Made by a program: the position numbers and the translations under genes
The notes under the pieces: model-generated
The model's database searches: none
Seen by the model: only the letters and a program-made list of their open reading frames with translations
What the model was told of the DNA's origin: nothing
Part shown: positions 11,092 to 44,849 of the stretch, piece by piece
How positions within the stretch are numbered: position 1 is the stretch's first letter
Layout of the letters: the number at the start of each line of letters is the position of its first letter
From: a virus
Taxonomy: Duplodnaviria; Caudoviricetes
DNA length: 56,572 nucleotides
Strand: one strand, 5' to 3'
IMG/VR virus record: IMGVR_UViG_3300009506_000095
Span: 1-56,572 of that record

Positions 11092-11871
11092 ATGAGTAGA
11101 AGAGATTTACCTTTCATACTAGGTATGAAGGTTGAAAGGTTGGCCATAGGCTACCCTTGGGTTTCACCATTTATCTGGCAAAAGCACCATCAAAATGTGC
11201 TAAATTTGGAAAGACCTTCAGGTTTAGACATAAGATGGTTTCAAGGTCAAGGTTGGTGCCCTGCCCGCAGACATATTCACTTGTGTGAACAAGCTGTAGA
11301 GTGGGGTGCCAGCCACATACTTATCCTAGGCTCTGACCAGATTTTTCCTGAAAATCTCATACCAAGGCTCATAGAGAGAGTCGAAGTTGATGGCTGCGAA
11401 GTTATAACAGCTATGGTTCCGACAAGAGGGCTTGTGCCTTGGGTAGATATGAAACCATTTCAACCTGTAGCTTATAGATTTAAAGATGGTATGAAGGCTA
11501 ATGAATATAAAGGTTGGGATGTTAGTTCTGATATGATAGATATTATCATGCCTGATGAAAGTCCAGAGCTAGTTAGAGTAGATTTCATAGGCTCAGGATG
11601 TATAATGTTCCCTGTAGATGACCTTCTAACAATACAGAAGCCCTGGTTTGATGAAACATTTACAGTAGATGAATATAAGCGTCATGCGTCCATGGATACC
11701 AGATTTATTTGGAAGCTCAAAGTTATCGCTGGCGCCCAAATTTGGGTGGATACAACAATTAAGATCGGGCATTTGAACGATATGATAATTGACGATTCAT
11801 ATCAGCACAGGTTCAGTCGTGATGACTGGCAGGAGCAGGGATATGGATCAGCACCAGCAAACATCAAGTAA
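11092..11871 (+). CDS. GT-A fold glycosyltransferase (GT2-like)
   Basis: HILILGSDQIFP, VDFIGSGCIM, KPWF, QIWVDTTIKIGHL; paralogous to the last domain of 31996-34869. Confidence 0.7.
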   Translation: MSRRDLPFILGMKVERLAIGYPWVSPFIWQKHHQNVLNLERPSGLDIRWFQGQGWCPARRHIHLCEQAVEWGASHILILGSDQIFPENLIPRLIERVEVDGCEVITAMVPTRGLVPWVDMKPFQPVAYRFKDGMKANEYKGWDVSSDMIDIIMPDESPELVRVDFIGSGCIMFPVDDLLTIQKPWFDETFTVDEYKRHASMDTRFIWKLKVIAGAQIWVDTTIKIGHLNDMIIDDSYQHRFSRDDWQEQGYGSAPANIK

Positions 11872-12262
11872 ATTCAGAATACTTGGTGATTTCTCCAATT
11901 TAAGCATTGGAGCTTGTGTAGAAATTGCTAGAGACCCATGGCCATTTTTTGATGTAACTGGTCGGGAGATAGTTCTAGGCAATTATGTTGTGATAAGCTC
12001 TGGTGTTTATATACATACCCATTCCCACCAATTTAATAAATCAAACTGGAGAAAACTCCCAAAAATAATTGATGACGAGCAGACTATAATCTGTGACTAT
12101 GCCTTTATTGGTGTGAACGCACAAATTATGCCTTCTTGTAAATATATAGGACTGCATTCAGTGGTTGCTGCTGGAGCAGTTGTAACTAAAGATATTCCTG
12201 ATTATGAAATATGGGCAGGAAATCCTGCTTTTAAAATTGGGGATGTTGAAAAAGGAGATTAA
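11843..12262 (+). CDS. Hexapeptide-repeat (LbH) O-acetyltransferase
   Basis: IGVNAQIMP..IGLHSVVAAGAVVTKDIPDYEIWAGNPA; ATG 11843 preceded by AGGAG. Confidence 0.85.
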   Translation: MDQHQQTSSKFRILGDFSNLSIGACVEIARDPWPFFDVTGREIVLGNYVVISSGVYIHTHSHQFNKSNWRKLPKIIDDEQTIICDYAFIGVNAQIMPSCKYIGLHSVVAAGAVVTKDIPDYEIWAGNPAFKIGDVEKGD

Positions 12263-12264
12263 AG

Positions 12265-12746: not shown

Positions 12747-12769
12747 TCGGGGCTGGTAGGAGATATTGG

Positions 12770-13231
12770 ATGGCTAAACTGGTTTGCATACATGAAAATC
12801 TTGCGTTGGCAAAAGTGGCGAGGGGTGTTCGTGCATCGGTTGAAGAAGACCATGCTATTCAACCCGTTGGTGATATTGTTGGGGTGTTTGAGGATAGCCA
12901 TGTGTTTTCTCCACTTGAAGAATCTGAGTTTGAGATAATCGACATACAGGGCTTTACAAGGCAGGAACTGATAGATGCGCTACCCCTTCCACAAATGGGT
13001 GTTGATATAGATGGGAATGATGCGTGGCTGGATGCGTCTGACGGCCTATGGAAAAGACTCTCAAAAAGGCCGAAATTCAAACTGTCTAAGGCAAATATAA
13101 AAAGCAATGATATAAGTAAATTGGCATCATCGTCTATTTCTATAGCAGACAAAATCGCAATATTGCAGACGCTCAAAAACAGGATCGCTGACTATCCAGA
13201 AAACTTCATAACTGTTGTGGTACAGACATGA
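12770..13231 (+). CDS. Hypothetical protein, paralog of 41665-42159
   Basis: Shared D.VGVFED.H.FSPLE...F.I.D..GFT.QEL motif. Confidence 0.7.
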   Translation: MAKLVCIHENLALAKVARGVRASVEEDHAIQPVGDIVGVFEDSHVFSPLEESEFEIIDIQGFTRQELIDALPLPQMGVDIDGNDAWLDASDGLWKRLSKRPKFKLSKANIKSNDISKLASSSISIADKIAILQTLKNRIADYPENFITVVVQT

Positions 13232-13566
13232 AGCTGACAGTCGATTTGCCGGATTGGTGCGATGAAAGAAACGTCTATATTATGGCGGGTATAGAGTTGG
13301 CGGGATATAAACTTTATGGCAGAAACGAAGTGATGGTCAAGTCTGTCCGGTGCAATATGTGCGGTGAGTGCTGCATGAACCTCCCAAAGAGATACCCGGT
13401 TGATAAAACGGAAGACGGAAAGTGTATTCATTTCGATACAAAAACAAAGCTGTGTTTAATTCCCATAGAGCGGTCAAGACTTTGCGACAGGTGCGACCCG
13501 AACATGAATAGCGAACCAAAAGAATATTGTGCAATCAGATATAAGGTCGGTGGGAGTACTGAATAA
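13228..13566 (+). CDS. YkgJ-like cysteine-cluster (Zn/Fe-S) protein
   Basis: [22 protein letters not shown]...RSRLC pattern. Confidence 0.7.
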
Positions 13567-16469
13567 TGGCAACCTATTATCCGCAATTATTAGGGTCGAG
13601 ACTCCTCGCTGATAGCGACGGCAGTCCTCTTGCAGCCGTTGATGCCGATGTTTCTAATCATACCAAAACAGATAAAATAATTCTCGCCATACAGGTCGGG
13701 TATAACGGTAAGGATACTGCTGCGTCCGCCTATAAACTCCAGTATAGGGATGAAACGGACAATCCTGGCGGAGCAATGGGAGATGTCGGTGCTACTGGAG
13801 AAGTTAAGTATTCTGCAACATCCTCCACGCTGACTGACGGCGGTTCTGTTACGTCAAATATCTGCACTGACCAATCCGCCGATATGACATGGCAGAACGG
13901 ACTTGAGAATGTAAACGACAATGTTCTCCCCGATGCCGGGACATTTGACCTTGGGAGTGACTGCTATACAGAGTTCTGGTTTGCGCTCGATCTTTCTGAT
14001 GCAGAAGATGGTCATCAATATACATTTGGGCTTTATAATACCACAGAAGGTGCGAGTCTGGGTGCATGCGCCGCTCAAGTAACGATTGCCGCAGGACCAC
14101 CCACAGAGAATATATACGCAATATGTTCTGCTGCCGATTGGGGCAGTCCTCTGTATGCCGACAAAGGTAGCACTGGAGCGAGAGATGCGTACTACGCAGG
14201 GTATTATACCTCAGCACAAGCATGGGAAACTGCCCGTAATGGAGACCTGACTTCTGGAAATACAAAAGAGACAGCAGAGGCATGTGGTGATGACTGGAGC
14301 GGTAGTCCCGATGGAAATATAGGTTTTGGTGGGTGGATATGCAACAGGGATAACGACCAGATTATAACATTAAAGTCCGTCGGCTCTGCTAAAAATACCA
14401 CTGGTATTTGGGATGCTTCCAAATACGTTATGTACAGGGCCACTGATGATGTTTTTGATATTGCTATAAGTACAGATCGTTTTGATCTTGACGTGGAATA
14501 CATTCAGTTGCACGCTGCCGACCCTGCGGGAAATGAGAGTTTTAACTTTCGACAGCAGGCTGCTGGATCGGTTGTAAATGTAGGATATGCGCTTCTCTAC
14601 CATTCGGGTTCATCGGGGGTTGGATTTAGTAGTAATAGTGCAAATGCAACAACATTAAATATATATAATTCTTACATAACAAATAGCAATTATTACAGAC
14701 CGATACAGTGTATTGGGGCGAGCAGTACGATAAATGTTTATAATAGTACTATTTGCGGTTCTACTGAGCGTGGTATTCATGAAGCGGCTGGTACTATTAA
14801 TGTTTATAACTGCGCTGTTTTTGATAATGATTCTGCTGATATAAATGTAACCAATGGTACTGTAACTAATTGTGCATCCGATGGCGGCACAGGCACTAAT
14901 GCCCAGACTTTAGACAATACCAATAATTATGAGAATGAATTTGTAGATTATCCCGGTGGAGATCTCAGGCTTGTTTCAGGTTCTGTCTGTATAGAAAACG
15001 GGACTGACAATCCAGGTAGTGGCTTATATTCTGATGACTATTTGGGAACTGCCAGAAGCAGCACTTGGGATATTGGAGCGTTTGAGTATGTTGGGGGTGG
15101 GTCTTCAGAGTCTCCTTCTGAATCACCTTCAGAGTCTCCATCTGAATCACCAAGTGAGTCTCCAAGTTTATCTCCATCAGCTTCTGAATCTCCTTCTGAA
15201 TCTCCTTCTGAAAGTCCAAGCGAGTCTCCAAGCTTAAGCCCTTCAGCTTCTGAAAGCCCTTCAGAGTCTCCTTCTGAAAGCCCTTCAGAGTCTCCTTCTG
15301 AAAGCCCTTCAGAGTCTCCATCTGAGTCTCCAAGCTTAAGTCCTTCAGCTTCTGAGAGTCCTTCAGAGTCTCCATCTGAATCACCTTCAGAATCTCCATC
15401 TCTAAGCCCTTCAGCCTCTGAAAGCCCATCTGAGTCTCCATCTGAGTCTCCAAGCTTAAGTCCTTCAGCTTCAGAGTCTCCTTCTGAATCACCTTCAGAG
15501 TCACCATCTCTGAGTCCTTCAGCTTCTGAATCTCCATCTGAGTCTCCTTCTGAATCACCAAGTGAATCTCCTTCATTATCTCCTTCAGCTTCAGAGAGTC
15601 CATCAGAGTCTCCTTCTGAAAGCCCTTCTGAATCTCCAAGCTTAAGCCCTTCAGCTTCAGAGTCTCCTTCTGAAAGTCCTTCAGAGTCTCCTTCTGAATC
15701 TCCAAGCTTAAGCCCAAGTGCTTCAGAGTCTCATTCTGAAAGTCCATCTGAAAGCTCTTCAGAGTCTCCATCTCTAAGCCCAAGTGCTTCTGAGTCTCCT
15801 TCAGAGTCACCTTCAGAGAGTCCATCTGAATCTCCAAGCTTAAGTCCTTCAGCTTCTGAAAGTCCATCAATTTCTCCAAGTGAATCTCCATCTCTAAGCC
15901 CTTCAGCTTCTGAAAGCCCATCAGAGTCTCCTTCTGAATCACCTTCTGAATCACCTTCAGAGAGTCCATCTGAATCTCCAAGCTTATCTCCTTCAGCTTC
16001 TGAATCACCAAGCGAGTCTCCTTCTGAGTCTCCAAGCTTAAGCCCTTCAGCTTCTGAGTCTCCTTCAGAGTCTCCATCTCTAAGCCCTTCTGAATCACCT
16101 TCCGAATCCCCATCGCCATCTCCTGGATCACCATTGGAAGGAACAACTTGTTGGGGACATGTGACAGGAGTTGAAGAGCAAAACACAAGGCCATTCGCTA
16201 CTATATGGACTGGAACAGGAGAGATAAGTGGATCTGGAGATACTGAAATAATTACTTTAGATTCCAGCGAATCTATGGTAGGAGAAGTTGTATACATAGG
16301 TGCTAACACCGTCATTATAGAGGTGAACAAATATAGGTCAGGAACAGGAACCCCAACAGTATATTACAAAGATGGAGATTCCTATAATAATTGTATTGCT
16401 GATGATTGGAATCTTTATTCAGACCCATTCTTATCGACTGGGTATGTACAGATAATGGTAGAGAACTAA
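13566..16469 (+). CDS. Virion surface protein: beta-rich and beta-helix head, mucin-like (SPSE)n stalk, C-terminal anchor domain
   Basis: IYNS.I/VYNSTI/VYNCAV beta-helix repeats ending WDIGAFEY, then ~340 aa of [14 protein letters not shown] repeats, then a globular C-terminal domain. Confidence 0.75.
15102..16124 (+). repeat. Coding tandem repeat (SPSE)n punctuated by [10 protein letters not shown]
   Basis: 12-bp units such as TCTCCTTCTGAA/AGCCCTTCAGAG and recurring CCAAGCTTAAGCCCTTCAGCTTCTGA. Confidence 0.97.
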
Positions 16470-20383: not shown

Positions 20384-20385
20384 GC

Positions 20386-21087
20386 ATGAAATATATAATT
20401 CTTATTATATTCATCATTCTTATAGCATGTTCTCCAGCACCAGATGATTCTATAAACATTGCTGTAATAAGCCTACACGGTGGAGGATGGAGAAGGTCTG
20501 ATGGCTGTTTTGATAATATCCAATTTATGAATAAACTCACCGAGTATGATGTTATTATACCAGATTTCACACTCTCAAACGATCCAAATTTCGTAGACCC
20601 ATTCACCACAATAATGGATATAAAAAGTGTTGTTGATAGTGCTAAGCTAACTCATGATGAAGTTTTCTTATGTGGCAGATCATCTGGAGGTCATTTGGCT
20701 CTTTTCTATTCTATACTTAGACCATATGATATAAAAGGAGTGATAGACATAGCTGGGCCATCTGACCTCACCACTCTCGCAGATAGTGCTTGGGATGAGG
20801 ATACAATAGAGATTTTAAGAGGAATGGTTGCTGATTTCAGCATAATAGATGGAAGAGATTTAAGAAAAAGTTTCAGTATAAATGTAGACTCTGGAGTTCC
20901 ATCACTCCTAATATACAATACGCTCGATTCTACTGTTGATTATGATACTCAAGCAATTCCATTATTTGGTACTTTCCCTAATGCAGATATAAGGATATTC
21001 AACGACCCAACAGGGCATATTTTTGTCGATAGGCATGAAGATGAAATAATAAACAGTATTAGAGATTTTATAAAGAAGAATGAGTAA
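20386..21087 (+). CDS. Alpha/beta-hydrolase (esterase/lipase-like), probable lipoprotein
   Basis: HGGGW oxyanion motif, GRSSGG nucleophile elbow, D and GH catalytic candidates; hydrophobic signal ending LIAC. Confidence 0.8.
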   Translation: MKYIILIIFIILIACSPAPDDSINIAVISLHGGGWRRSDGCFDNIQFMNKLTEYDVIIPDFTLSNDPNFVDPFTTIMDIKSVVDSAKLTHDEVFLCGRSSGGHLALFYSILRPYDIKGVIDIAGPSDLTTLADSAWDEDTIEILRGMVADFSIIDGRDLRKSFSINVDSGVPSLLIYNTLDSTVDYDTQAIPLFGTFPNADIRIFNDPTGHIFVDRHEDEIINSIRDFIKKNE

Positions 21088-21748
21088 TATAACCCTCATA
21101 TACTATACAGCTAATAGGATTCATAAGTCATTTGCTCTGAAGATAAGAGAAAACTTACAGGAATTAGCTGATAGTATTGAGTCTGAAATAATAAGTGTGT
21201 CTTGGAAGCCTATTGATTTTGGTAGAAATATATGTGTCGGAGAGCTTGAGTTTTTGCCATACAATGTTTATAAGCAGATACTCATAGGCTCTAAGGCAGC
21301 AAATACAGAGTATATAGGATGCTGTGAGGATGATTCTCTTTATAACATAGAGCACTTCTCCTATAGAAGTGATTGTTTCTCATATAATGTTAATAGATGG
21401 AATGTAGATTCCAGAGGAATTTATTACTACAGAAGAAGATCTGGAATGTGCATGTGCGTAGTCCCAAAAGAATTATTGATTGAGACACTGGAGAAAAGAT
21501 TTGAGAAATATCCAAAGGTTGTAAATAGAGATGAAAGGCCATATTTTGGTGAGCCTGGAAGGTATGAAGAGATACTTGGGCTTCCAGAAGTAAAGATGGA
21601 GACATTCACAACGAATGATCCAACATTAACCTTTAACCATAGACCGAGCCTTGGCGGGAAAAGAAAGATACTGAAAAGGGATATTGTTAAAAAATCAATC
21701 CCGTTTTGGGGAGATGCCGAGACTCTTTGGAGGGAATACTATAAATGA
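21080..21748 (+). CDS. Putative glycosyltransferase-like domain protein
   Basis: YYTAN, CCEDDSLY, FGEPG and IPFWG motifs shared with the C-terminal domain of 24376-26085. Confidence 0.6.
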   Translation: MSNITLIYYTANRIHKSFALKIRENLQELADSIESEIISVSWKPIDFGRNICVGELEFLPYNVYKQILIGSKAANTEYIGCCEDDSLYNIEHFSYRSDCFSYNVNRWNVDSRGIYYYRRRSGMCMCVVPKELLIETLEKRFEKYPKVVNRDERPYFGEPGRYEEILGLPEVKMETFTTNDPTLTFNHRPSLGGKRKILKRDIVKKSIPFWGDAETLWREYYK

Positions 21749-22506
21749 TAATGCCAGAATTAGTAGACGGATGTAGAGTTAAATGTAAATTATGCTGGAA
21801 TAGTTATCGTTACCCACCGATGACCGAGATGCCTTTGGAGATAGTCGAGAAGGTTCTTGAACGCCATCATGGTGATAAAATAGAATGGTTCAATTGGGGA
21901 GATCCACTTTTACACAAAGATATATACAAAATATCTGAGATGGTTAGGTTTACAAACTCAAGAATAAGCTCTTCACTTTCTCTTATGATGGATGAAGAGA
22001 AATTCGCTGCTGTAAAGAATTTCAAGTCTATTATAGTCTCCATATCAGGAATGACTGGAAGTGTATATAATATCTATCATAGAGCAGGTCTTTTTTCTCT
22101 TGTAGTAAGCAATCTCCACCAGCTTATAAGAAGAGAGAATAATATCATTATCAGATGGCTAGGGCATAAATATAACCAGCATCAGTATGCCCAGTGTAAG
22201 CAATTCTGCGAGAAGCATGATCTTAGATTCGACCCCATATTACTAAATGCTACTGTGGAAGATATGATGAATGGTATAGAGGATGATCTGATTGGGGATA
22301 AACATTCTGATGCTGGAAAATGTCGACTCCTAAAATGGGTTCCAATCGGAGTCGATGGATCATATCTCTTGTGCTGCGCTTCGCATAATATAAAGACAGG
22401 ATACACGATATTCGATGATATAACACCAAAGCAACTACTTCAGAGAAAGCTTGAGATGCCGTTCTGTATAAAATGTAGGGAAAGAGAGTTATGGAGAAGA
22501 TTATAG
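21745..22506 (+). CDS. Radical SAM protein with SPASM/twitch-like C-terminus
   Basis: CRVKCKLC (CxxxCxxC), FNWGDPLLH, C-terminal C..IGVDGSYLLCC..CIKC. Confidence 0.8.
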   Translation: MIMPELVDGCRVKCKLCWNSYRYPPMTEMPLEIVEKVLERHHGDKIEWFNWGDPLLHKDIYKISEMVRFTNSRISSSLSLMMDEEKFAAVKNFKSIIVSISGMTGSVYNIYHRAGLFSLVVSNLHQLIRRENNIIIRWLGHKYNQHQYAQCKQFCEKHDLRFDPILLNATVEDMMNGIEDDLIGDKHSDAGKCRLLKWVPIGVDGSYLLCCASHNIKTGYTIFDDITPKQLLQRKLEMPFCIKCRERELWRRL

Positions 22507-23123
22507 AAGTATTAATAGTAGACATAGATCGTTCACGTTACACAGATCAGCTACTTGGAGATATATCTAAGCAGACTGTAGAGCCAGATGTATTCCTGTT
22601 CATACAAGACTCTCATGATATGGTAGGGCTGAATAGGATATGGAATGCTTTCTATGAGCAATCTGAATGTAAATACCTTTCTTTTCTGAACAATGATATT
22701 AGAATACCTAAAAATTTTATTGAAGATACGTTGGATATATTTGAAAAAGAGAGTGATGTTAGCATAGTAGTCCATTCTACAAATCATCCAGATTATACAG
22801 ATGTTACAGATCTTAATTATGTTATATATGATAGCGATCTTTGTCAGGGATGGGACTTCACTATAAGGAGAGAAGATTATGTTAGAATCCCTGATGATTT
22901 GGACACTTTTGGAGGTGATGATTTCTTATTCTATAATCAGTATAGAAATGGCAACAAGGTTGCTGTAGCAATATCATCGCCTATAATTCATTACCATGCT
23001 AAGAGTAGGCATTATTTCAGAGGAGACAGGCAGAAAGAGCGTGATAACCTTAGAAAATATGTCCCAGAACGGATGACATATTATTCTAGATATTCTAGGA
23101 GAGATCCATGCCAGATGGTTTAG
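22491..23123 (+). CDS. GT2-like glycosyltransferase
   Basis: WNAF, YLSFLNNDIRI, GWDFTIRR, FGGDDFL, IIHYH. Confidence 0.75.
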   Translation: MEKIIEVLIVDIDRSRYTDQLLGDISKQTVEPDVFLFIQDSHDMVGLNRIWNAFYEQSECKYLSFLNNDIRIPKNFIEDTLDIFEKESDVSIVVHSTNHPDYTDVTDLNYVIYDSDLCQGWDFTIRREDYVRIPDDLDTFGGDDFLFYNQYRNGNKVAVAISSPIIHYHAKSRHYFRGDRQKERDNLRKYVPERMTYYSRYSRRDPCQMV

Positions 23124-23776
23124 TCGTATCAGTACCAAAGAGTGGAAGGACTTGGTTGAGAGGATTCTTGATTCTATATGAGAAAGTATCTTCAGAGAAA
23201 ATTGATGTACTATACTCTCATAACTGGAGAAGCCTAAATGTAAAAAGAGTGCTTCTTGTAAGAGATCCACTAGATATACTTGTAAGTGACTATCACCATC
23301 TAAAATACAGAAGTAAGAAGAAAACTGGAAGGCTAAAGAATATAAAAGCTTTCATAAGAAGTGGATGGGGAGTGCGTAAAATAAATAGATACTGGAGTAA
23401 TTGGATTCATGAAATAGATGAAAAAGTCCTTGAAGTAAGATATGAAGATCTATTCAATAATGTATGGTGCGAGATTCTGGATTGGTTTGATATAAAGATA
23501 AATAATGATGTTGTTGAGGTAGTGGATAATATATGCAAATTCAAGAATATGAAAAACAATTTAAGCCTATTCAGAGATCACGAAGATGGCTGGAGATTTC
23601 TGCCTTCGGAGAATGGAAATATGGTGGATAACCCGACTGATAACAATGCTCATAAACTTAGGAGGGGAAAAGTTGGCGGTTATGTAGATTATCTTGACGA
23701 AGATGATATAAACTATGTAAGAAGTTCAATGCCAGTCGCTGGACGATGGTATGAGGAATATAAGGGGGCAAAATGA
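23108..23776 (+). CDS. PAPS-dependent sulfotransferase
   Basis: 5'-PSB SVPKSGRTWL, 3'-PB LVRDPLDILVS, RYEDL, C-terminal RRGKVGGYVDYL. Confidence 0.9.
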   Translation: MPDGLVVSVPKSGRTWLRGFLILYEKVSSEKIDVLYSHNWRSLNVKRVLLVRDPLDILVSDYHHLKYRSKKKTGRLKNIKAFIRSGWGVRKINRYWSNWIHEIDEKVLEVRYEDLFNNVWCEILDWFDIKINNDVVEVVDNICKFKNMKNNLSLFRDHEDGWRFLPSENGNMVDNPTDNNAHKLRRGKVGGYVDYLDEDDINYVRSSMPVAGRWYEEYKGAK

Positions 23777-24366
23777 GTAGGATAGATGAAGCAATAAAGG
23801 CAAAGTTCAGAATAAAGAGAGGTGATAACCTTCCATACACTGGGTGGGCAAATTGGGATAGAAATATGCTTGCCGAGCTATTCAAGGACGTTGGATTTAC
23901 GCTTGGTGCTGAAGTTGGTGTAAGAAAAGGTGAATATACAAGAATACTATGTGATGCTAATCCTGAATTAAAGATGTTCTGCATAGACCCATATACTGCC
24001 TACAATCGAGTGTCCAATGATAGACAGGCAAGATACTTTAGGAATGCGGAGCGTAGGCTGAGAGGATGTAATGTAGAATTTATAAAGAAAACGAGTATGG
24101 ATGCTCTTGAGGATATTCAAGACAGGACTCTTGATTTTGTATATATAGATGGAAGGCATGAATTCGATTTTATTATGCCTGATATTATCTTCTGGTCAAG
24201 AAAGGTTAAGCGTGGAGGGATAGTCTCAGGTCATGATTACTATTATTTCTATCAAGGCGGTGTGGTAGACGCAGTAAATGCTTATACTCGCACCCATAAT
24301 ATCCAAGAGTGGTATTTGACCCAAGAGCGTCATCCATCTTGGTTTTGGGTAAACAGATGGTCTTAG
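23773..24366 (+). CDS. Class I SAM methyltransferase (Methyltransf_24-like)
   Basis: GAEVGVRKG, CIDPY, LDFVYIDGRH, KRGGIVSGHDY. Confidence 0.88.
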   Translation: MSRIDEAIKAKFRIKRGDNLPYTGWANWDRNMLAELFKDVGFTLGAEVGVRKGEYTRILCDANPELKMFCIDPYTAYNRVSNDRQARYFRNAERRLRGCNVEFIKKTSMDALEDIQDRTLDFVYIDGRHEFDFIMPDIIFWSRKVKRGGIVSGHDYYYFYQGGVVDAVNAYTRTHNIQEWYLTQERHPSWFWVNRWS

Positions 24367-27270: not shown

Positions 27271-27271
27271 T

Positions 27272-28509: not shown

Positions 28510-28510
28510 A

Positions 28511-30700: not shown

Positions 30701-31978
30701 ATGGATAGTTTGAAAATTTGCGTAGTTGGATCAGTGAGAAGCGGGACTAATTGGATAGCACATCTATTCTCTCCAATCGTTGATGAAGTTATAGCTGATG
30801 CTGATTATAATGGTGCTACTTGTAATGAGAGATACAGGAATATAGATAATAGAGATGAACTACTGGGAAAAGAAAGTTTTGTCTTCAAACAAAATGAAGA
30901 TCTTATGAACATGGAAAATCTCGACAAGATGATAGAGCTTTTCCCTGATATTAAGTTCATACTTGTTATAAGAGATCCAATAAAGATTGTGGAATCAATA
31001 TGCAAAGCATATCCTGACTCTATCCCGATGAGATTCTTTCCTGCTGTTAGTAAAATTCAAGATGATTTAGGCATATCTAGAGTTGAAGCATCAACAATAT
31101 TCGCATCAGGATATATTAACCAAATACCTAAGTTTATAAATAAATATAGTGACAGAGCTATAATAGTTAAATATGAAGATCTAGTTTACAATTTCGAAGA
31201 TACACTCTCAGGGCTTTATAATTACTTTGGGCATGAGATTAGTCAAAAGCAAATTGATGAAGTAGAAAGGCCAATTGGTGAGCATGGTGAAGGGCTTACT
31301 CCTGATGAAGTAAGCATAATTCTTGACAACACTGTTATCAGAGAAGCACTTGATAAATATGGATACTTTATAGGTGGTAGAACTACTGAGCCAACTGTAG
31401 AGCCTACTATAAAGCCTGATGAGAATGATAACATTGCTGTATCAGATTACATAGCAAGAAATTCAAAAACATATTACTCAAAGGGGAGTTCTGGGTTTAG
31501 AGATAAATTTGCATATGTTAGGGATTTTGTAGATGGCTGTGGTAAAATACTTGATGCTGGAAGTGGATCAGGAAATTATGCCAGAGAATTAATTTCTTCT
31601 GGTAAAGAAGTTTTCTGTATAGACCATAGCAAATATTGCTGTGATAATTTTCTAATAGATATTCCGCACGAGAATAAGAGCATAGTTGAATTCTGTGGAA
31701 AGACAAGAAGGAAATTCGATTGTGTTTATTGCATAGATGTTCTTGAGCATATCCCTTATGATGATATTTGTGATAACCTCAAAGCTTTGAGCAGAGTGTC
31801 TAATAAATTTCTATTTGGAATAGCTAACCATCCAGATGTACAGTTCGGATACCAACTCCATAAGATAATAGAAGGCAGAGACTGGTGGATTGAAAATTTA
31901 TCAGAATATTTCGATAATGTTGAGCATATAGCAAGTTTATTCTTAGGTCAATTTTTCTTCATCAAATGTGAAAACTAA
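30701..31978 (+). CDS. Sulfotransferase - class I methyltransferase fusion
   Basis: N-terminal GSVRSGTNW, IRDP, KYEDLV; linker TEPTVEPT; C-terminal ILDAGSGSG, FDCVYCIDVLEHI. Confidence 0.85.
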   Translation: MDSLKICVVGSVRSGTNWIAHLFSPIVDEVIADADYNGATCNERYRNIDNRDELLGKESFVFKQNEDLMNMENLDKMIELFPDIKFILVIRDPIKIVESICKAYPDSIPMRFFPAVSKIQDDLGISRVEASTIFASGYINQIPKFINKYSDRAIIVKYEDLVYNFEDTLSGLYNYFGHEISQKQIDEVERPIGEHGEGLTPDEVSIILDNTVIREALDKYGYFIGGRTTEPTVEPTIKPDENDNIAVSDYIARNSKTYYSKGSSGFRDKFAYVRDFVDGCGKILDAGSGSGNYARELISSGKEVFCIDHSKYCCDNFLIDIPHENKSIVEFCGKTRRKFDCVYCIDVLEHIPYDDICDNLKALSRVSNKFLFGIANHPDVQFGYQLHKIIEGRDWWIENLSEYFDNVEHIASLFLGQFFFIKCEN

Positions 31979-31995: not shown

Positions 31996-34869
31996 ATGGA
32001 CATTACAGATCAGAAGGTGAGTATAATCTTACCAATCATAAGAGAAGAAGGGGCAAAGAAATGCATAGAAGCCATCAGCATGAATGCCGGAATACCATCT
32101 GAGAATTTTGAATTGATAGCTGGGCTTGATACAAAAAGAATTGGTTGCCCAAAGATGGTTAAGATTCTTGCTGAGAAGTCTAATTACGATCTTGTTATGT
32201 TCTTGGCTGATGATACAATACCTCAGAAAGACTTCCTGAAGAATGCACTAAAAGCTATGGCCACACTTCCTGATGGATGGGGATTAGTAGCACTAGATGA
32301 TGGCCTACAGAATCCTGGATTATTGGCTACTCACTGGCTTGCGAGTAAAAAGCTTTTGCCTCTTATTGGTGGAGAGTTTTTCTGCACTGAGTATAAGCAT
32401 AATTTCTGCGATCAAGAACTCACTATGAGGTGTAAGGATTTAGGAAGGTTCACTATTGCTTATGATTCAGTAGTAAAGCATAATCACCCCGCAGCAAATA
32501 GGATGTTCTTTGATAGAAATTATTTAGAATCTTCTAGTGAAAAGAGCATAATGGATGATAGGAATGTTTTCGATAGAAGGTTGAAGGAATACCTTAAGGC
32601 TAAAAATGTATGGAATCTGAAAAAAATACCAAAGATTCTACATCTATATTGGGGAAGAAATAAAAAACTTTCATTCATGAAATTCCTTACTCCATATTCA
32701 TTTGCTAAATTAAATCCAGATTGGAGAATAGTTGTCCACTACCAAGAGTATCCAAATGCTGATGAAGCAGATGTCGGTAGTGAGCAAAAGTCTTACAGCT
32801 ATAAGCATGAGGATTGGTTCTACAGGCTTATAGAGATAGACAATTTAGAACTAAGAATGGCAGAATTTGATCAAGACAAATATGATATAGAGAAAGTACC
32901 AGAGCTTTTCAGAAATGATCTTTATAGGATACAGATCATGCAAAGTATAGGTGGCTTCTGGTCTGATTTCGATGTTCTATTTGTAAGACCTATGTACCAC
33001 CTTGATATTAACAAACCAGAGAATGAGAATACAGACACTGTAACATGCTCTCACTATTCGATGAATAAGACTGCTTTTCTTGGAGGAGCACCAGGAGAAC
33101 CAAATTTCTATTCAGGCTTATATAATATATACAATAAATATAGGAAAAGAGGGATAGATGTTGTAGAGAGGCAAGCATATGGCGAGTCGATGTTCAATGA
33201 TTACTTTGCCTATACAGAAATTAATAAAAAAGCAATAAAGGCAGATATTGGTGTAGATGTTTCAAATATTGCAATGTCTGTGATTTATCCAGTTCTAAAA
33301 AATAAAGTCGAACATCTATATGGAAAAGATTTCAAGATAAGAAATGATACTATAGGATTTCATTGGTATTCTGGAGACCCAAAGACCTCTAAGTATGAGA
33401 ATGAAATAAATGAAGACAATATATCTGCTTTCGATGATAAAATGATATTTTCCATTATGAAAAGTATTTACTTATCTGAAAAATTCAGGTATAGTATTCT
33501 CATGCCTTATTATAAGAGGCACGAGCAACTTCATAACACTTTAGTATCTTTCACCTATCACTATGAGGATAGAAATGATTATGAAGTAGTGATAGTTGAA
33601 GATGGTAAGAACTACAAAGATGCAGATGAACACGAGAAGCTACTAAGTGTTATTTCAGGCTTTAGCGATAAAGTCAATATAAAACATATCGTGGCTGAGA
33701 ATATAATATCAAATAACCCTTCCCCATACTACAATATAGCTGCTGAGAACGCAGAAGGCAAAATACTCGTTATAACAAGCCCTGAGTGCCTACATGAGAA
33801 TAATGTACTAGACAGATTCGATGGGGTTATGGGGTTTAATGACTCGATATATGCTATATGTGCGTGTAGAAATGTTGGTCTGTATCCGAAAATGATAGAA
33901 AAATTTGAGGATTTCGATTATACTCACTTAGAATGGTATCAGCATAGTAAATTCAGGAATATGTCTTTTCATTTTTGCTCTGCTATATCAAAATATAATT
34001 ATCAACTAATAGGTGGATTTGATGATCGTTTCTCTCACGGTATAGATTATGATGATGTAGATTTTAGAGAGATGATAAAATCTGCTAAGATTGAGATAGT
34101 AAAGCTTGATGATGCTTATACGCTTCATCAAAAGCATTCAAAAGACCCAGATATTTTTACAGAAGAGAAGGGTGAGGATGAGGAAAGGAATAGGCAATTG
34201 TTCTACACTAAACGCAAGAAAGATTTTAGATTAGGCATAGGACTTCCTCATACAGATAAGACTGTGACCTCATATTTCTTTGACTCTTGGGTTACTATGG
34301 AGAAACCAGATTTTGTTTATATGCGTCCTCCCTATACTGGATACATAGGATTAGATAAGGCAAGAAACGCATTGGTTTTGGATGCCTTTACAGGTGGATG
34401 CACTCATCTTCTTATGATGGACACGGATCAAATATATCCTACTGATACAATTCCTAAACTGCTTAGTCATGGAAAGGCAGTTGTAGGTGGAGTTGTACAC
34501 AGGAGATATGCGCCATTTGATCCGATTTTATATAAAGGAACCATCGGGAATTATAGCCACATACCAGACGAACTAGCCTACTCAGGAGAGTTGGTGGAAG
34601 TTGATGCAACTGGCTGTGGATGTATACTCTATGATATGGAGGTTTTTAAAAAGGTACAACCACCATGGTTCGAGATCTATCAGTTGGAAACTGGCAAAGA
34701 CGTAGGAGAAGATATTGGCTTCTGCGCAAAACTGAGAGATGCTGGTTTTAGTATCTATGTAGATACATCAATAGAGATAGAGCATATGTCTGTGATGGGG
34801 GTAACTCGTACCATGTATGAATGGTACAAAAAAGTCCACCACTTCGGGTGGGCTGATAAGGGGGCTTAA
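31996..34869 (+). CDS. Multi-domain glycosyltransferase (about four GT-A domains, including a DXD/GT32-like domain)
   Basis: SIILP..FLADDT; IPKILHLYWG..GGFWSDFDV; SILMPYY..IGGFDDRF..DYDDVDF; LMMDTDQ..VDATGCGC..GEDIGFC. Confidence 0.88.
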   Translation: MDITDQKVSIILPIIREEGAKKCIEAISMNAGIPSENFELIAGLDTKRIGCPKMVKILAEKSNYDLVMFLADDTIPQKDFLKNALKAMATLPDGWGLVALDDGLQNPGLLATHWLASKKLLPLIGGEFFCTEYKHNFCDQELTMRCKDLGRFTIAYDSVVKHNHPAANRMFFDRNYLESSSEKSIMDDRNVFDRRLKEYLKAKNVWNLKKIPKILHLYWGRNKKLSFMKFLTPYSFAKLNPDWRIVVHYQEYPNADEADVGSEQKSYSYKHEDWFYRLIEIDNLELRMAEFDQDKYDIEKVPELFRNDLYRIQIMQSIGGFWSDFDVLFVRPMYHLDINKPENENTDTVTCSHYSMNKTAFLGGAPGEPNFYSGLYNIYNKYRKRGIDVVERQAYGESMFNDYFAYTEINKKAIKADIGVDVSNIAMSVIYPVLKNKVEHLYGKDFKIRNDTIGFHWYSGDPKTSKYENEINEDNISAFDDKMIFSIMKSIYLSEKFRYSILMPYYKRHEQLHNTLVSFTYHYEDRNDYEVVIVEDGKNYKDADEHEKLLSVISGFSDKVNIKHIVAENIISNNPSPYYNIAAENAEGKILVITSPECLHENNVLDRFDGVMGFNDSIYAICACRNVGLYPKMIEKFEDFDYTHLEWYQHSKFRNMSFHFCSAISKYNYQLIGGFDDRFSHGIDYDDVDFREMIKSAKIEIVKLDDAYTLHQKHSKDPDIFTEEKGEDEERNRQLFYTKRKKDFRLGIGLPHTDKTVTSYFFDSWVTMEKPDFVYMRPPYTGYIGLDKARNALVLDAFTGGCTHLLMMDTDQIYPTDTIPKLLSHGKAVVGGVVHRRYAPFDPILYKGTIGNYSHIPDELAYSGELVEVDATGCGCILYDMEVFKKVQPPWFEIYQLETGKDVGEDIGFCAKLRDAGFSIYVDTSIEIEHMSVMGVTRTMYEWYKKVHHFGWADKGA

Positions 34870-34895: not shown

Positions 34896-35348
34896 ATGTC
34901 TGTTAAAGTTGGTTATAAAGCTAAAGTTTCTCTAGGTACCAGTACTATCGTTGGTATGGGCACTTGGAGTATGAGTGGTATCACAGCAGATCAGCTTGAC
35001 GCATCTGACTTCGGGGATAACTGGAAAGTATTCGAGTTTGGTATGAAGGATGGTGGTCAGGTGACTTTTAACGGTCTACTGGATCCAGACGATACAACTG
35101 GCCAACACGCTCTTATGAGAGCTAATGTTGAAAACACTGATCTTACTAGTCTAAGGCTTTATGTCGATCAGACTTCTTATTATGAACCGTGTCAAACAAC
35201 TGGTTGGTTCTCTCCATCTACCACCACGTTAAATGATACAGTACTTTCTTGGGTCAATATCACTTCGTTTGATATTAGCACAGACAAGTCTGGTCTTGCT
35301 CAAGTTTCCTTTACTGGAAAGGTCAGCGGTATGATGGTGCTGGTGTAA
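34896..35348 (+). CDS. Major tail (tube) protein
   Basis: WSMS..ADQLDASDFGDNWK....GMKDGGQVTFNG, QVSFTGKVSG; position before chaperones and TMP. Confidence 0.8.
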   Translation: MSVKVGYKAKVSLGTSTIVGMGTWSMSGITADQLDASDFGDNWKVFEFGMKDGGQVTFNGLLDPDDTTGQHALMRANVENTDLTSLRLYVDQTSYYEPCQTTGWFSPSTTTLNDTVLSWVNITSFDISTDKSGLAQVSFTGKVSGMMVLV

Positions 35349-41655: not shown

Positions 41656-41664
41656 GGGGGCTTT

Positions 41665-42159
41665 ATGGCAAGAATACTTTTAATAACTGACAAGCACGCT
41701 AATACTGGTGCTTATCAACAGGGCTTATGCTCTAAAGATGATTTGGTTGGCGTGTTTGAGGATGGTCATGAGTTCTCACCACTTGAGATAGCTCATTTTA
41801 AAATCGTTGATGTCCATGGCTTTACTAAGCAAGAGCTTAAAGACGAGTTGGATAAGAAGATTCCAAAGATCAAAGAGATTGTTGAAATAAATGGTGAATG
41901 GTATGAAGGTGATCTAGTTACATTGAATAAATTCAATCCAACTAGGATTAAGGAAGCATTCATTGATAATGACGAATGGTTCTTACTTGAAAAAAGAAGG
42001 AAACACCCTCTAAGCCTATCAGACCTTAGTAGTAATGACATTGCAGAGTTAGCATCTAAATCAACAACAAAAGATCACAAAAAGTCTATATTAGATAAAA
42101 TAAAATGCAAACATAATATCTACCAAGAAAACAAAACAAAAATAGATAAGATAAAATAA
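41665..42159 (+). CDS. Hypothetical protein, paralog of 12770-13231
   Basis: Shared VGVFED.H.FSPLE..GFT.QEL; again lies upstream of a beta-helix/SPSE gene. Confidence 0.7.
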   Translation: MARILLITDKHANTGAYQQGLCSKDDLVGVFEDGHEFSPLEIAHFKIVDVHGFTKQELKDELDKKIPKIKEIVEINGEWYEGDLVTLNKFNPTRIKEAFIDNDEWFLLEKRRKHPLSLSDLSSNDIAELASKSTTKDHKKSILDKIKCKHNIYQENKTKIDKIK

Positions 42160-44849
42160 TGGCCACAGTAAATAGATACGCAATATGCTCTACAGCTGAT
42201 TGGGGTTCCCCACTTTATGCTGATAAAGGTTCAGCTGCTGCTAGAGATGCGTACTATTTTGGTTATTATACATCTATACAAGCTTGGGAATCAGACCGGA
42301 ATGGCAATTTAACAACTGGTGGTGACAAAGAAGTTGCTGAACCATGCGGTGATGATTGGAGTGGAAATCCTGACGGTTCTCTTGTAATATCTGGTTGGAC
42401 ATGTAACAGAAGTAATGATGAGTACATTGTTATTGAAGCTGTCGGCTCAGCAAGAAATACAACAGGAATATGGGATACTACCAAGTATATTGTTTCAGCT
42501 AATTCAGGTACGGTGAATGCTTTATTATATTCCTCATCAGGCAATAGTAGACCAGATTCAGACATAATTGGAATACAATTTACACAGGAATATAACTCTG
42601 GTGTCCCTATAGTAAAAACATTGACTGGTTTGGGTGCTAATACAGATTTGCGGTTTGATTCATGCATTATCAAACCAACATATAGTACTAGTACAATTAT
42701 TGGCTTTCAAGCTTATCCACAGCTTTCCACAGAAAGGGTATATCTTTATAACTCAATAATAGATATGAGAAATGGTGGTGGTACAGGTTTAAGTGTACCT
42801 GGAAATGGATATTCCGGTTTAACATATGCGCTGAACTGTACTATATTTGGCTCTACTTATCAGTATCTCTATGGTGCCTATTCTTATTTATCTCCTTTGT
42901 ATCTTTATAATTGTGCTGTATTCTACAATTACGATGATTTTGATATCAACACTGGTTCAATTAATTATTGTGCGTCAGATGATGGTGATGGAAGTTTTGC
43001 TGAGACTCTTGATAATTCAAGTAATTATGGAAATGAATTCACAGATTTTTTGAGCGGTGATGTGACTCTTGTCTCTGGAAGTACATGTATAGGTCAAGGT
43101 ACTGATAATCCTGCAAGTCTTGGCATTTATACTGATGACTTTTTTGGAGATACAAGAACATCGACTTGGGACATTGGTATGGATGAATATGGTGCTTCAT
43201 CAGAGTCTCCTTCTGCTTCACCATCTGAGTCTCCAAGCCTAAGCCCTTCAGCTTCTGAAAGCCCTTCTGCTTCTCCAAGCATATCGCCTTCAGAATCTCC
43301 AAGCTTAAGCCCTTCAGCTTCTGAATCTCCAAGTATAAGCCCATCTGAGTCTCCTTCAGTTTCACCATCTGAGTCTCCAAGCTTAAGCCCTTCAGCTTCT
43401 GAAAGCCCTTCTGCTTCTCCAAGTGAATCACCATCTATTTCCCCATCAATTTCGCCTTCAGAATCTCCAAGCTTATCTCCTTCAGCTTCTGAAAGCCCAT
43501 CAGTTTCGCCTTCAGGTAGCCCATCTGAGAGTCCATCTGAATCTCCAAGCTTAAGCCCTTCAGCTTCTGAAAGCCCATCTGAGTCTCCTTCAGAGAGTCC
43601 ATCTGCAAGCAAGTCTCCATCACCATCTGAGTCACCATCAGCTAGCCCGACACAATCGCCAAGCATATCACCTTCTGAGTCTCCAAGCTTAAGCCCTTCA
43701 GCTTCTGAAAGCCCATCAGAGTCTCCTTCTGAATCACCTTCAGAATCTCCAAGCCTAAGCCCTTCAGCTTCTGAAAGCCCTTCTGAGAGTGCGAGTGAAT
43801 CACCATCACCATCACCATCTGAAAGCCCATCAATTTCACCTTCAGCATCGCCTTCTGAATCTCCAAGCTTAAGCCCAAGTGCTTCTGAATCTCCAAGCGA
43901 AAGTCCTTCATCCTCACCAAGCTTAAGCCCTTCAGCTTCTGAAAGCCCTTCTGCATCTCCATCAGAGCCACCTGCTCCACATGAAATGTATGATTATCTA
44001 AGTCCAGTTGAGGTAGATTATGACTACATATTAGACATAAAGCCACAGAAGGTTATACTTGAAAGCTCTACATTCGGGCAGGATAAATACCTAACAGATG
44101 ATATAAATTATTCTGTTTATGGTAAGTCTACAGCACCAAAATTTATAGCGACTCTTGAATTCAGTGTTAAAAGCTCTTACGAGATAAGTGTCATATATGA
44201 TCTTTACTCTGACAGTAATAAAGCGTATGGTATGTGTAAGACTTTCAAGTGGCAGCATTATGACAATGAAACAGGAAATGGGCATATTTATGCTGTAAGA
44301 TTCTGGGAAGATATTGAAAGGAGTATGATTTCAAGAAGCATCCAAGGAATGGCAAAAGTCAGACTTGCAATTATTGGCAATGCAGTAGATGAAGATCCAG
44401 CATCTGAAAGCCCAAGTATGTCTGATTTTGGAGTAGAAATGTATGATTATCTTCCAGGTACTGCCTCTCCAGATAGTGCATATACCCTTGATGTTAAGCC
44501 ACAGAAAACGATAGTTGAGGCAGTTACTTTTAAGCAAAGCAAGCTAATTATGGATGATATGACTCATAAAATAGCTTCTCCAAGTGATACACCACAATTC
44601 CTTGCTACTCTTTATTTTGATGTAAAGAGTAGAACTGATATTGGAGATATATATGATATATATAATAATACTGGAAAGGGGTATGGAATAAAACGATCAT
44701 TCAAGTGGGTACACCAAGATGCAGAAACTGGAGATGGTCATGCATATGTAGTAAGATTTTGGGATGATATAGAAAGAAGTCTAAAAACTAGAACAATACA
44801 AGGATTCACTAAAATTACATTGGCTATTATTGATAGGATTAATGATTAA
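42159..44849 (+). CDS. Tail-region protein: beta-helix head, (SPSE/SPSA)n stalk, duplicated C-terminal domain (possible distal tail protein)
   Basis: N-terminus nearly identical to an internal region of 13566 ([29 protein letters not shown]); two copies of EMYDYL..KPQK..FKW.H.D.ETG.GH.Y.VRFW.DIERS; located between TMP and tail hub. Confidence 0.75.
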   Translation: MATVNRYAICSTADWGSPLYADKGSAAARDAYYFGYYTSIQAWESDRNGNLTTGGDKEVAEPCGDDWSGNPDGSLVISGWTCNRSNDEYIVIEAVGSARNTTGIWDTTKYIVSANSGTVNALLYSSSGNSRPDSDIIGIQFTQEYNSGVPIVKTLTGLGANTDLRFDSCIIKPTYSTSTIIGFQAYPQLSTERVYLYNSIIDMRNGGGTGLSVPGNGYSGLTYALNCTIFGSTYQYLYGAYSYLSPLYLYNCAVFYNYDDFDINTGSINYCASDDGDGSFAETLDNSSNYGNEFTDFLSGDVTLVSGSTCIGQGTDNPASLGIYTDDFFGDTRTSTWDIGMDEYGASSESPSASPSESPSLSPSASESPSASPSISPSESPSLSPSASESPSISPSESPSVSPSESPSLSPSASESPSASPSESPSISPSISPSESPSLSPSASESPSVSPSGSPSESPSESPSLSPSASESPSESPSESPSASKSPSPSESPSASPTQSPSISPSESPSLSPSASESPSESPSESPSESPSLSPSASESPSESASESPSPSPSESPSISPSASPSESPSLSPSASESPSESPSSSPSLSPSASESPSASPSEPPAPHEMYDYLSPVEVDYDYILDIKPQKVILESSTFGQDKYLTDDINYSVYGKSTAPKFIATLEFSVKSSYEISVIYDLYSDSNKAYGMCKTFKWQHYDNETGNGHIYAVRFWEDIERSMISRSIQGMAKVRLAIIGNAVDEDPASESPSMSDFGVEMYDYLPGTASPDSAYTLDVKPQKTIVEAVTFKQSKLIMDDMTHKIASPSDTPQFLATLYFDVKSRTDIGDIYDIYNNTGKGYGIKRSFKWVHQDAETGDGHAYVVRFWDDIERSLKTRTIQGFTKITLAIIDRIND
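43197..43970 (+). repeat. Coding (SPSE/SPSA/SPSI)n repeat
   Basis: Same DNA units as the head-region repeats, with more variants. Confidence 0.95.

Follow-up and report, generated by a model that had tools for sequence, protein, structure and literature searches.

The window analyzed here is an entire IMG/VR record (IMGVR_UViG_3300009506_000095; 56,572 bases, linear, CheckV completeness of 58%) from a tailed phage. All genes from 14 to 50396 lie on the plus strand and make up a siphovirus-type morphogenesis operon. Within it are three fiber-like genes with long Ser/Pro repeat tracts and a set of glycosyltransferase (GT) and other enzyme genes, which together form a putative system for O-glycosylation of phage fibers. 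The enzyme genes occupy two gaps in the operon, one between head and neck genes (11092-26085) and one between the tail terminator and major tail protein genes (29672-34869). Gene anatomy, enzyme families, fold and motifs, and co-occurrence were computed directly. Genes are named by their start coordinate within the window (e.g., 24376), and those of the system and its surroundings are as follows.

10128..11072, plus strand: beta-helix protein directly after the head genes (Pfam Beta_helix, E 2.6e-5, below the cutoff)
11092..11871, plus strand: GT-A fold glycosyltransferase without a Pfam match, paralog of the C-terminal domain of 31996
11789..12262, plus strand: hexapeptide-repeat acetyltransferase (Pfam Hexapep, E 2.5e-5, below the cutoff)
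13566..16469, plus strand: fiber-like protein of 967 amino acids (aa), with a globular N-terminal part of ~500 aa, a Ser-Pro-Ser-Glu tract of ~340 aa, and a C-terminal domain of 120 aa
16471..19478, plus strand: second fiber-like gene, with an N-terminal domain of 130 aa, an S/P/E tract of ~794 aa, and a C-terminal end of 60 aa
19475..20383, plus strand: 302-aa GT2 protein, a divergent, shorter paralog of the first domain of 24376 that retains LDAHC (Pfam, 32.8 bits)
20386..21087, plus strand: alpha/beta-hydrolase esterase (Pfam BD-FAE, E 4.6e-10)
21080..21748, plus strand: 222-aa stand-alone GT-A domain, paralog of residues 330-569 of 24376 (BLAST to GT loci)
21745..22506, plus strand: radical S-adenosylmethionine (SAM) protein (Pfam Radical_SAM, 34.9 bits; weak NCBIfam matches of the peptide-maturase type)
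22491..23123, plus strand: 210-aa GT2-like protein (Pfam GT2, 22.8 bits, slightly below the cutoff of 23.3)
23108..23776, plus strand: sulfotransferase (Pfam Sulfotransfer_1, 65.9 bits, E 4.7e-18)
23773..24366, plus strand: SAM methyltransferase (Pfam Methyltransf_24, 62.4 bits, E 8.8e-17)
24376..26085, plus strand: 569-aa two-domain glycosyltransferase, with an N-terminal domain resembling polypeptide N-acetylgalactosaminyltransferases (ppGalNAc-Ts; DxH, Cys4 insertion) and a second GT-A domain
29672..30691, plus strand: radical SAM protein encoded after the tail terminator and ahead of the next enzyme genes (Pfam, 45.1 bits)
30701..31978, plus strand: sulfotransferase-methyltransferase fusion
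31996..34869, plus strand: multi-GT protein of 957 aa, encoded immediately before the major tail protein gene
42159..44849, plus strand: tail tip protein of 896 aa, with an N-terminal part, a Ser/Pro tract, and two tandem Dit/gpM-like C-terminal domains

Taken together, the fiber-like genes contain four in-frame tract segments of 1307 codons (S 649, P 297, E 224, A 57, L 51), and ~73 additional repeat codons lie in a shifted frame. The total of ~1,380 agrees with the initial annotation of this DNA, which was made from the sequence alone and counted about 1,400 repeat residues in three genes. The repeat unit is (S-E-S-P)3-7 followed by S-L-S-P-S-A. It is conserved as a peptide and not as DNA, with scrambled codons: the 221 SESP units are encoded by 35 different 12-mers, and 39 identical 18-aa units occur in 35 DNA versions with a mean nucleotide identity of 79%.

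The three genes differ in detail. In 13566, which has no Pfam or PHROG family match, the SPS motifs span aa 515-847. The second gene consists of two open reading frames (ORFs; 16471-17355 and 17526-19478), each continuing the other in a different frame. A perfect 44-bp tandem duplication (two copies at 17239-17326, plus strand) shifts the frame and splits this longest fiber gene; in silico removal of one copy yielded one continuous frame of 987 aa whose 794-residue tract is 90% S, P, and E. The duplication may have arisen as an assembly artifact, may truly inactivate the gene, or may act as a switch of variable length. In 42159, the tract is ~245 aa long (about aa 349 to 590), and the globular N-terminal part is homologous to 13566. 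This gene is located between the tape measure gene and a Phage-tail_3 fiber gene, an order that fits the position of a siphovirus Dit. The C-terminal domains of 42159 resemble DUF2460 (template modeling [TM] score of 0.62) and Phage_min_tail (TM of 0.48) clusters; given the low confidence of the Atlas model (predicted local distance difference test [pLDDT] of 0.52), the Dit-like assignment serves as no more than a lead. No Pfam, PHROG, or phage database match was found for the C-terminal part, and cultured-phage searches with the fiber N-terminal domain and with the Dit-like part also returned no match.

The lead enzyme, 24376, matched Pfam GT2 (Glycos_transf_2, PF00535) at 39.5 bits, with a threshold of 23.3. 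Of the 8000 candidates scored, at least 4077 proteins fell at E ≤0.001, and the best 120 all matched over the full length with E <1e-183. In a library of 1.84 billion proteins, 577 representatives of the family were counted at E ≤1e-30, and 372 GT stretches were confirmed in IMG/VR (2.9 million contigs). Across 30 aligned members, D83 and H85 were invariant (30/30), as were four cysteines (C120, C123, C136, and C139). Among solved structures, the 30-member profile scored best against ppGalNAc-T1 and T2 (E 6e-11 to 5e-9), with the ppGalNAc-T1 match covering two stretches, 5-107 and 163-277, at a whole-protein E of 6e-11. The motif pairs aligned between the family and the ppGalNAc-Ts were LDAHC-LDAHC, WG..E-WGGENLE, and fsHlFR-vgHvFR (H-x-F-R), and both the DxH metal motif and the distal histidine that mark family GT27 are present in 24376.

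Structure comparison gave the same picture. The AlphaFold2 (AF2) model of 24376 has a pLDDT of 88.5, and the ~40 top Foldseek PDB matches listed were all ppGalNAc-Ts (E about 1e-14; about 18% identity over the aligned fold), bar one chain of the chondroitin polymerase K4CP, which spans both domains of 24376. The second GT-A domain comprises residues 330-569. No hydrophobic segment was found in 24376 (maximum Kyte-Doolittle hydropathy, KD19, of 0.90), so that the type II membrane topology of GT27 enzymes is lacking. Its paralog 19475 matched ppGalNAc-T10 at an E of 1.6e-3, and 21080, without a Pfam match, reached a TM of 0.72 to GT2 domains in an Atlas structure search. By motifs and modeled fold, 24376 is ppGalNAc-T-like, which is a resemblance only. 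As a resemblance, the initial description of 19475 and 24376 as ppGalNAc-T-like was correct. The term "mucin-type" that accompanied it holds for the likeness of the enzymes and not for GalNAc chemistry, and it is likewise a resemblance rather than a finding. A BFVD search retrieved only unnamed or generic GT-A proteins of phages and giant viruses, and the open-access literature searched contained no description of a GT27-like phage enzyme paired with Ser/Pro repeat fibers. A complex prediction for the N-terminal domain (residues 1-320) with a 45-residue tract peptide, made without controls, scored 0.01 and was not used.

The remaining enzymes are diverse. For 11092, the AF2 model (pLDDT of 78) had COLGALT1, LH3, and ppGalNAc-Ts as its best Foldseek PDB matches (E about 1e-6), and through locus L134, the protein aligns with the corresponding region of 31996 at 27% identity. 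In 31996, Pfam GT2 matched residues 500-596 at 36.1 bits, the one match above threshold, next to three weaker GT-like stretches; PHROG glycosyltransferase families cover residues 60-188 and 756-949, and Gly_transf_sug and Anp1 matched weakly. The fusion protein 30701 matched Sulfotransfer_3 at residues 57-179 (E 1.5e-12) and Methyltransf_23/25/11 at residues 281-375 in Pfam; PDB sequence searches with 30701 and 23773 found nothing. NCBIfam models of the WbbJ, NeuD, and WcaF type of sugar acetyltransferase matched 11789 with E values of 1e-12 to 1e-11, below their cutoffs. The esterase 20386 begins with a hydrophobic leader (maximum KD of 2.14) ending in L-I-A-C and followed by S-P, an ending that we take to be a lipobox. 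From this leader, the esterase is probably lipoprotein-like and exported, and no other enzyme of the block has a predicted route out of the cytoplasm. Hydrophobic segments are absent from all GTs, sulfotransferases, and methyltransferases, which are therefore predicted to act in the cytoplasm, where virions assemble.

The initial inventory of enzymes was borne out. Six GT genes with about ten GT-like domains had been counted; six are well supported and four are weak, making ten a fair upper count. The two sulfotransferase domains, two methyltransferase domains, acetyltransferase, esterase, and two radical SAM proteins were all recovered by Pfam or NCBIfam, and the stated absence of nucleotide-sugar synthesis genes from the window matches the Pfam results.

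Co-occurrence of the lead GT with Ser/Pro tracts was assessed in the 80 best IMG/VR loci found with the profile, many of whose tract-less members are short. A tract was scored where an ORF had ≥40 residues in 40-residue windows with ≥60% S+P+T and ≥6 Pro. By this measure, 63/80 viral GT loci contained a tract, always on the strand of the GT, and in 58/80 it reached ≥100 residues. Among viral loci of ≥18 kb, the fraction was 36/38, and among those found by single-sequence search, it was 22/32. A single-sequence scan of genome contigs recovered no GT loci; a profile scan recovered 71 from metagenome-assembled genomes (MAGs), of which 44 had a tract. As a control, we used 80 loci from the same collection and with the same flank, centered on relatives of the capsid gene. 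(A control based on TerL was dropped, as it yielded 8 close relatives only, too few and too related.) One control locus (1/80) holds the GT and methyltransferase, and it has a 297-residue tract. Among the other 79, 8 had any tract, mostly of 40-59 residues on the opposite strand, and only 2/79 had one of ≥100 aa. Fisher tests gave 2e-19 for any tract, 3e-22 for tracts of ≥100 aa, and 5e-10 for loci of ≥18 kb, the last comparison being the fairest because control loci were shorter on average.

The association was also evident when the search began from the repeat. An exact DNA pattern for a 12-residue repeat peptide retrieved 26 stretches on 23 distinct contigs. On 8 of these contigs, both the GT and the methyltransferase were found no more than 10 kb away, and 3 of the remaining 15 contigs belong to giant-virus bins. 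By comparison, the background frequency is about 372 GT stretches in 2.9 million contigs. (Retrieval with the peptide pattern itself gave at least 619 stretches, 2 of them confirmed by tblastn under its low-complexity filter, and the DNA pattern was used instead.) Within a 916-kb chromosome from the candidate phyla radiation (CPR; locus L102), a tract of ≥100 aa occurred in 1/40 intervals of 20 kb (800 kb), namely, the interval with the GT, and shorter tracts of 40-91 aa occurred in 8 others. The initial annotation had proposed co-occurrence as a check, and the outcome is strongly positive in both directions.

The tract proteins themselves have little else in common. From 118 proteins with tracts of ≥100 residues, 117 flanking segments of ≥80 residues fell into 82 BLAST clusters, 64 of them singletons. 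The commonest layout was a globular N-terminal domain, the tract, and a short C-terminal end (69/118), and the median distance from the GT to the nearest tract gene was 1.6 kb. In the tracts of viral GT loci, S and P are fixed and the fourth position varies (V 482, E 386, A 301, I 264, L 216). The Ser/Pro tract is the sole feature common to these proteins.

Other members of the cassette are conserved to different degrees. The second GT-A domain was present in 76/80 viral GT loci, and a Methyltransf_24 homolog was present in 61/80 viral and 48/71 MAG GT loci. Radical SAM genes were near the GT in 2/7 loci annotated with PHROG, and no relative of the sulfotransferase could be retrieved in IMG/VR. 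As judged by gene content, the predicted conserved system is a GT27-like GT-GT-A protein with a methyltransferase and tract proteins. Sulfation and acetylation would be additions specific to the window phage, their link to the glycan being drawn from gene position only.

The cassette and tract genes lie inside head or tail modules in the window phage and in 6/7 other phages annotated. In L148, L152, and L172, the cassette falls between portal and protease/capsid genes; in L156, it follows the tape measure, Dit, and tail fiber genes; in L165, it follows the capsid gene; and in L141, it follows a tape-measure-like internal virion protein. These phages have differing capsid and portal families. 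The 71 MAG loci come from many phyla, several on long contigs with cellular neighbors. In L102, L106, and L085, tract proteins of 560-910 residues are encoded beside the GT, additional GTs, and multiple Methyltransf_24 genes, with TatC, ribonucleotide reductase, or Mg-chelatase-like genes nearby. In L102, a Polysacc_synt_2/Epimerase_2 (UDP-GlcNAc 2-epimerase)/Polysacc_synt_C trio and a carbamoyltransferase (1885-6656) precede the cassette; this trio presumably resembles UDP-L-FucNAc synthesis, and the gene content suggests a modified N-acetylhexosamine (HexNAc) donor for the cellular version. Nucleotide-sugar genes also stand beside the GT in L165 (epimerase, UDP-glucose dehydrogenase-like) and L156 (aminotransferase). 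Such neighbors in relatives hint at a donor of the UDP-HexNAc type and fit the remark in the initial annotation that the donors of the window phage would come from elsewhere.

Another possibility is that the GTs modify phage DNA, giving glycosylated hypermodified bases. Phage GTs are known to glycosylate DNA (reviewed in PMC12619734), and a PurA-like gene in the window hints at nonstandard DNA. However, no hydroxymethylase or base modification gene stands beside the GTs by Pfam or PHROG, fold and motifs match peptide GalNAc-transferases, and the cassette is part of a structural operon and co-occurs with Ser/Pro tracts. In addition, DNA glycosylation is not known to involve sulfotransferases or multi-GT proteins, and we give this explanation almost no credence.

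Alternatively, the enzymes might glycosylate other virion sites, such as globular fiber domains, the capsid, or tail-tube subunits, with the tracts as mere spacers. There is precedent in mycobacteriophages, whose glycans are located on capsid and tail-tube C termini, as cited in PMC12619734. In close relatives of the window phage, the trio formed by the 10128 beta-helix, 11092 GT-A, and 11789 acetyltransferase (10128-12262) occurs directly downstream of capsid genes at 46-56% identity; it is kept in L134 and L209-L215, even where the fetched stretch shows no Ser/Pro tract, and may be a separate head-associated glycan module. In the window, though, neither the capsid protein (420 aa) nor the tail-tube protein (150 aa) has a Ser/Thr-rich extension, and the tract screen flagged only the four fiber ORFs. 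Non-tract domains are not conserved between GT loci and therefore cannot explain the association. Modification of such other sites in place of the tracts seems quite improbable.

Our preferred reading, held with moderate confidence and based on sequence and modeled structure, is that the phage O-glycosylates its own fiber proteins on tract serines in the cytoplasm. For the acceptor, donor, order of steps, modifications, and function, we infer the following. The fiber and enzyme genes would be coexpressed late in infection from one tightly packed, codirectional operon; the starts of 19475, 21080, and 23773 overlap the upstream stops at 19478 (the fiber stop), 21087, and 23776, respectively. The ppGalNAc-T-like domain of 24376, perhaps together with 19475, would use a DxH-bound metal to transfer the first sugar onto repeat serines from a host-made UDP-sugar, possibly a HexNAc. 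The acceptor would be the P-S-x-S-P repeat, in which Pro flanks one serine at -1 and +3 and follows the other at +1. In a preprint on GalNAc-Ts (bioRxiv 10.1101/2020.06.25.171371), the sequon is T/S-P-x-P, in which Pro at +3 fits a pocket and Pro at -1 is favored; the repeat would fit because (S-x-S-P)n supplies the Pro spacings of this sequon.

The glycan could then be extended by the second GT-A domain of 24376 and by 21080, 22491, 11092, and 31996 and methylated by the Methyltransf_24 enzyme (23773). In the window phage, it might also be sulfated by the two sulfotransferases and acetylated by the acetyltransferase. The product would be long, stiff, negatively charged stalks that hold globular N-terminal domains away from the particle, the longest measuring ~240 nm if the 794-residue tract were fully extended. 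One stalk would be anchored in the tail tip via the Dit-like domains and the other two on the head or neck. The initial annotation placed a brush on both head and tail; the tail position has a lead in the Dit-like C terminus of 42159, and the head position follows from gene position only. Stalk function may lie in stiffness and charge, protease resistance, adhesion, or shielding.

Several observations weigh against this reading. Co-occurrence is linkage and does not identify the acceptor; the tracts could be plain linkers coinherited with a glycan cassette. No tract was seen within the fetched DNA of 17/80 viral and 27/71 MAG GT loci, many of them short, and no family member was found in a search of 50,697 GenBank records of cultured phages. 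Pfam detected no ricin-type lectin (beta-trefoil) domain in 24376, and GT27 membership is not established because the lectin domain and membrane anchor are missing. The solved relatives nearest to 23108 are cytosolic sulfotransferases that act on small molecules, and the leader of 20386 makes it doubtful that the esterase tailors a cytoplasmic glycan. None of the 80 other viral GT loci had the sulfotransferases, the esterase, or the 957-aa protein, and most tailoring genes were likewise absent; for the brush of the initial annotation, the evidence for a sulfated part therefore comes from the window. Finally, the repeat lengths and the gene-breaking 44-bp duplication may include assembly error.

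Some of these points favor the most serious of the three rivals, in which the tracts are unmodified extended linkers and the enzymes act on a host envelope polysaccharide, a lipid-linked intermediate, or a free polysaccharide, both being parts of a joint mobile "surface" module. Receptor masking or superinfection exclusion could be the purpose. Soluble GT-A enzymes also use lipid-linked sugars at the inner face of the membrane, the lipoprotein-type leader of the esterase implies action at the cell surface, and the 11789 acetyltransferase resembles O-acetyltransferases of lipopolysaccharide and capsule; the 17 viral GT loci without a visible tract fit as well. Yet the closest relatives of the lead GT in sequence and fold are peptide directed and not polysaccharide synthases, and neither Pfam nor hydrophobicity analysis revealed a flippase, polymerase, undecaprenyl phosphate-priming transferase, or membrane GT in the window. 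Furthermore, the linkage is to the tract itself, over 82 unrelated clusters of flanking domains, and the cassette is found in late structural operons, not near lysogeny genes. We therefore regard action on the host envelope as unlikely.

The other features of the window are listed below.

1036..2763, plus strand: large terminase
2763..4187, plus strand: portal (Phage_portal)
4200..7079, plus strand: protease-like/AAA fusion, 959 aa, between the portal and capsid genes
7178..8440, plus strand: HK97-type capsid protein, 420 aa (Phage_capsid)
12770..13231, plus strand: companion protein, 153 aa, paralog of 41665-42159 (similar translations)
13228..13566, plus strand: Cys-rich protein, 112 aa (weak CxxCxxCC match)
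26095..26530, plus strand: two tandem paralogous small ORFs, 26095-26334 (79 aa) and 26318-26530 (70 aa), directly after 24376
27337..29717, plus strand: head-tail adaptor, head completion, neck, and tail terminator genes
34896..35348, plus strand: major tail (tail-tube) protein, 150 aa
36187..41655, plus strand: tape measure (PhageMin_Tail, 111 bits)
41665..42159, plus strand: companion protein, 164 aa, paralog of 12770-13231, directly after the tape measure
51416..52672, minus strand: adenylosuccinate-synthetase-like gene (Pfam Adenylsucc_synt, E 2e-44)
53574..53650, minus strand: tRNA-His (GTG), overlapping the annotated 5' end of ORF 52682-53653
56413..56486, minus strand: tRNA-Ser, anticodon ACT

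Some of the small genes recur next to tract proteins elsewhere. A homolog of the 12770 companion precedes a tract protein in L059, and homologs of 13228 precede 13566 homologs in L002, L003, L028, and L034; a 13228-type protein is fused to tract proteins in L111 and L028. The tract proteins of three MAG contigs (L102 14639-16225, L087 13080-16403, and L111 11320-14907) share the C-terminal motif IPSWN..GRPK..KKGTFGFN....LE(Y/F)WNG..W, which could be a common anchoring or assembly module. The two small ORFs after 24376 have no family match; both contain ..PVPE.VML....H....ICQTLR..Y..., and one copy is equally placed in 10/80 viral GT loci.

The operon also includes a tail assembly chaperone gene and, downstream of 42159, the gene for a central fiber of 1209 aa with weak Phage-tail_3 and carbohydrate-binding module matches (Pfam/PHROG). 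The N-terminal part of 4200-7079 is prohead-protease/major-head-like (phrog_617, phrog_11321) and joined to an AAA ATPase domain (Pfam AAA, E 1e-17), an unusual arrangement for a head module. The capsid protein is <60% identical to those of all 170 matching GenBank phage records, the matches listed being at 24-39%. Host assignment via capsid homologs was uninformative, with distant homologs in 3/401 Patescibacteria genomes (28-38% identity) and in 0/5 GT-bearing MAGs. A promoter/terminator scan of 9000-28000 was at chance level (51 versus 52 expected and 18 versus 12.9). The tRNA-Ser may serve translation of the tract codons AGC and AGT, which account for 188/649 tract serines. PurA homologs (PurZ) presumably mark phages in which 2-aminoadenine replaces adenine, which is relevant to 51416-52672; the ORF that adjoins it (50808-51419) has a weak metallophosphatase match.

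To our knowledge, a few mycobacteriophages are the only phages whose own enzymes have been shown to glycosylate the virion. If the preferred reading of fiber O-glycosylation is true, there is a much larger and older system with the catalytic design of animal mucin initiation, in which a simple repeat acts as a built-in acceptor. It would explain the frequent Ser/Pro "low-complexity" fibers of environmental phages, bear on the origin of GT27, and alter how phage surfaces are modeled with respect to charge, protease resistance, and adhesion to hosts or mucus-like matrices. It would also offer testable sequon-enzyme pairs for bacterial glyco-engineering, and the sulfotransferases would add sulfation to the known chemistry of phage particles. 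A wider and rather doubtful version, which we put forward tentatively, is that soluble GT27-like enzymes and P-S-x-S-P repeats constitute a widespread, undescribed O-glycosylation system of many unrelated tailed phages and of ultra-small (CPR) bacteria and archaea that is a sister or source of eukaryotic mucin-type glycosylation and that here builds sulfated, methylated, and acetylated glycoprotein hairs of up to ~0.2 micrometers on the tail tip and head, in which case a phage would for the first time be making a sulfated glycan.

Among known systems, the GT27 ppGalNAc-Ts (PDB entries 1XHB, 2FFU, 4D0T, and 6S22), which initiate mucin-type glycosylation, are the best structural matches to 24376 in the whole PDB. 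They have in common with it the GT-A fold, DxH, the WG..E "Gal/GalNAc-T" stretch, and the distal His, and the presumed acceptor here is likewise a Ser/Pro-rich tandem repeat, with Pro at +3, +1, and -1. In contrast, GT27 enzymes are type II membrane proteins of the Golgi apparatus, whereas 24376 is soluble and predicted to be cytoplasmic; in place of their ricin-type lectin domain, it has a second GT-A domain, and its Cys4 insertion (C120, C123, C136, and C139) sets it further apart.

Virion glycosylation was reportedly described in the mycobacteriophages Che8, Corndog, and Myrna by Freeman and colleagues in 2023 (Cell Host Microbe). The likeness lies in the presumed decoration of a phage's particle proteins by its own GTs inside the host cytoplasm. 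The mycobacteriophage glycans are carried on short C-terminal ends of the capsid and tail-tube proteins; the window phage has no such ends, and its presumed acceptors are fibers with tracts of 245-794 residues. The enzyme family is also different, and in the present case, the genes are embedded in the structural operon and include sulfotransferases.

The serine-rich repeat adhesins of Gram-positive bacteria (GspB, Fap1, and PsrP) have tracts with Ser at every second residue, which are O-glycosylated in the cytoplasm by the soluble, adjacently encoded GtfA/GtfB and then extended. These adhesins start with a GT-B (GT4) pair, are exported by an accessory Sec system and anchored via LPXTG, and have repeats without a fixed proline, whereas the window system has a GT27-like GT-A enzyme and tracts with a fixed proline; GtfA/GtfB, accessory SecA2/SecY2, and an LPXTG anchor were not among the Pfam, PHROG, and NCBIfam matches of the window. 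What the two would have in common is a glycosylated stalk that displays a globular binding domain, with the enzymes encoded beside their substrate.

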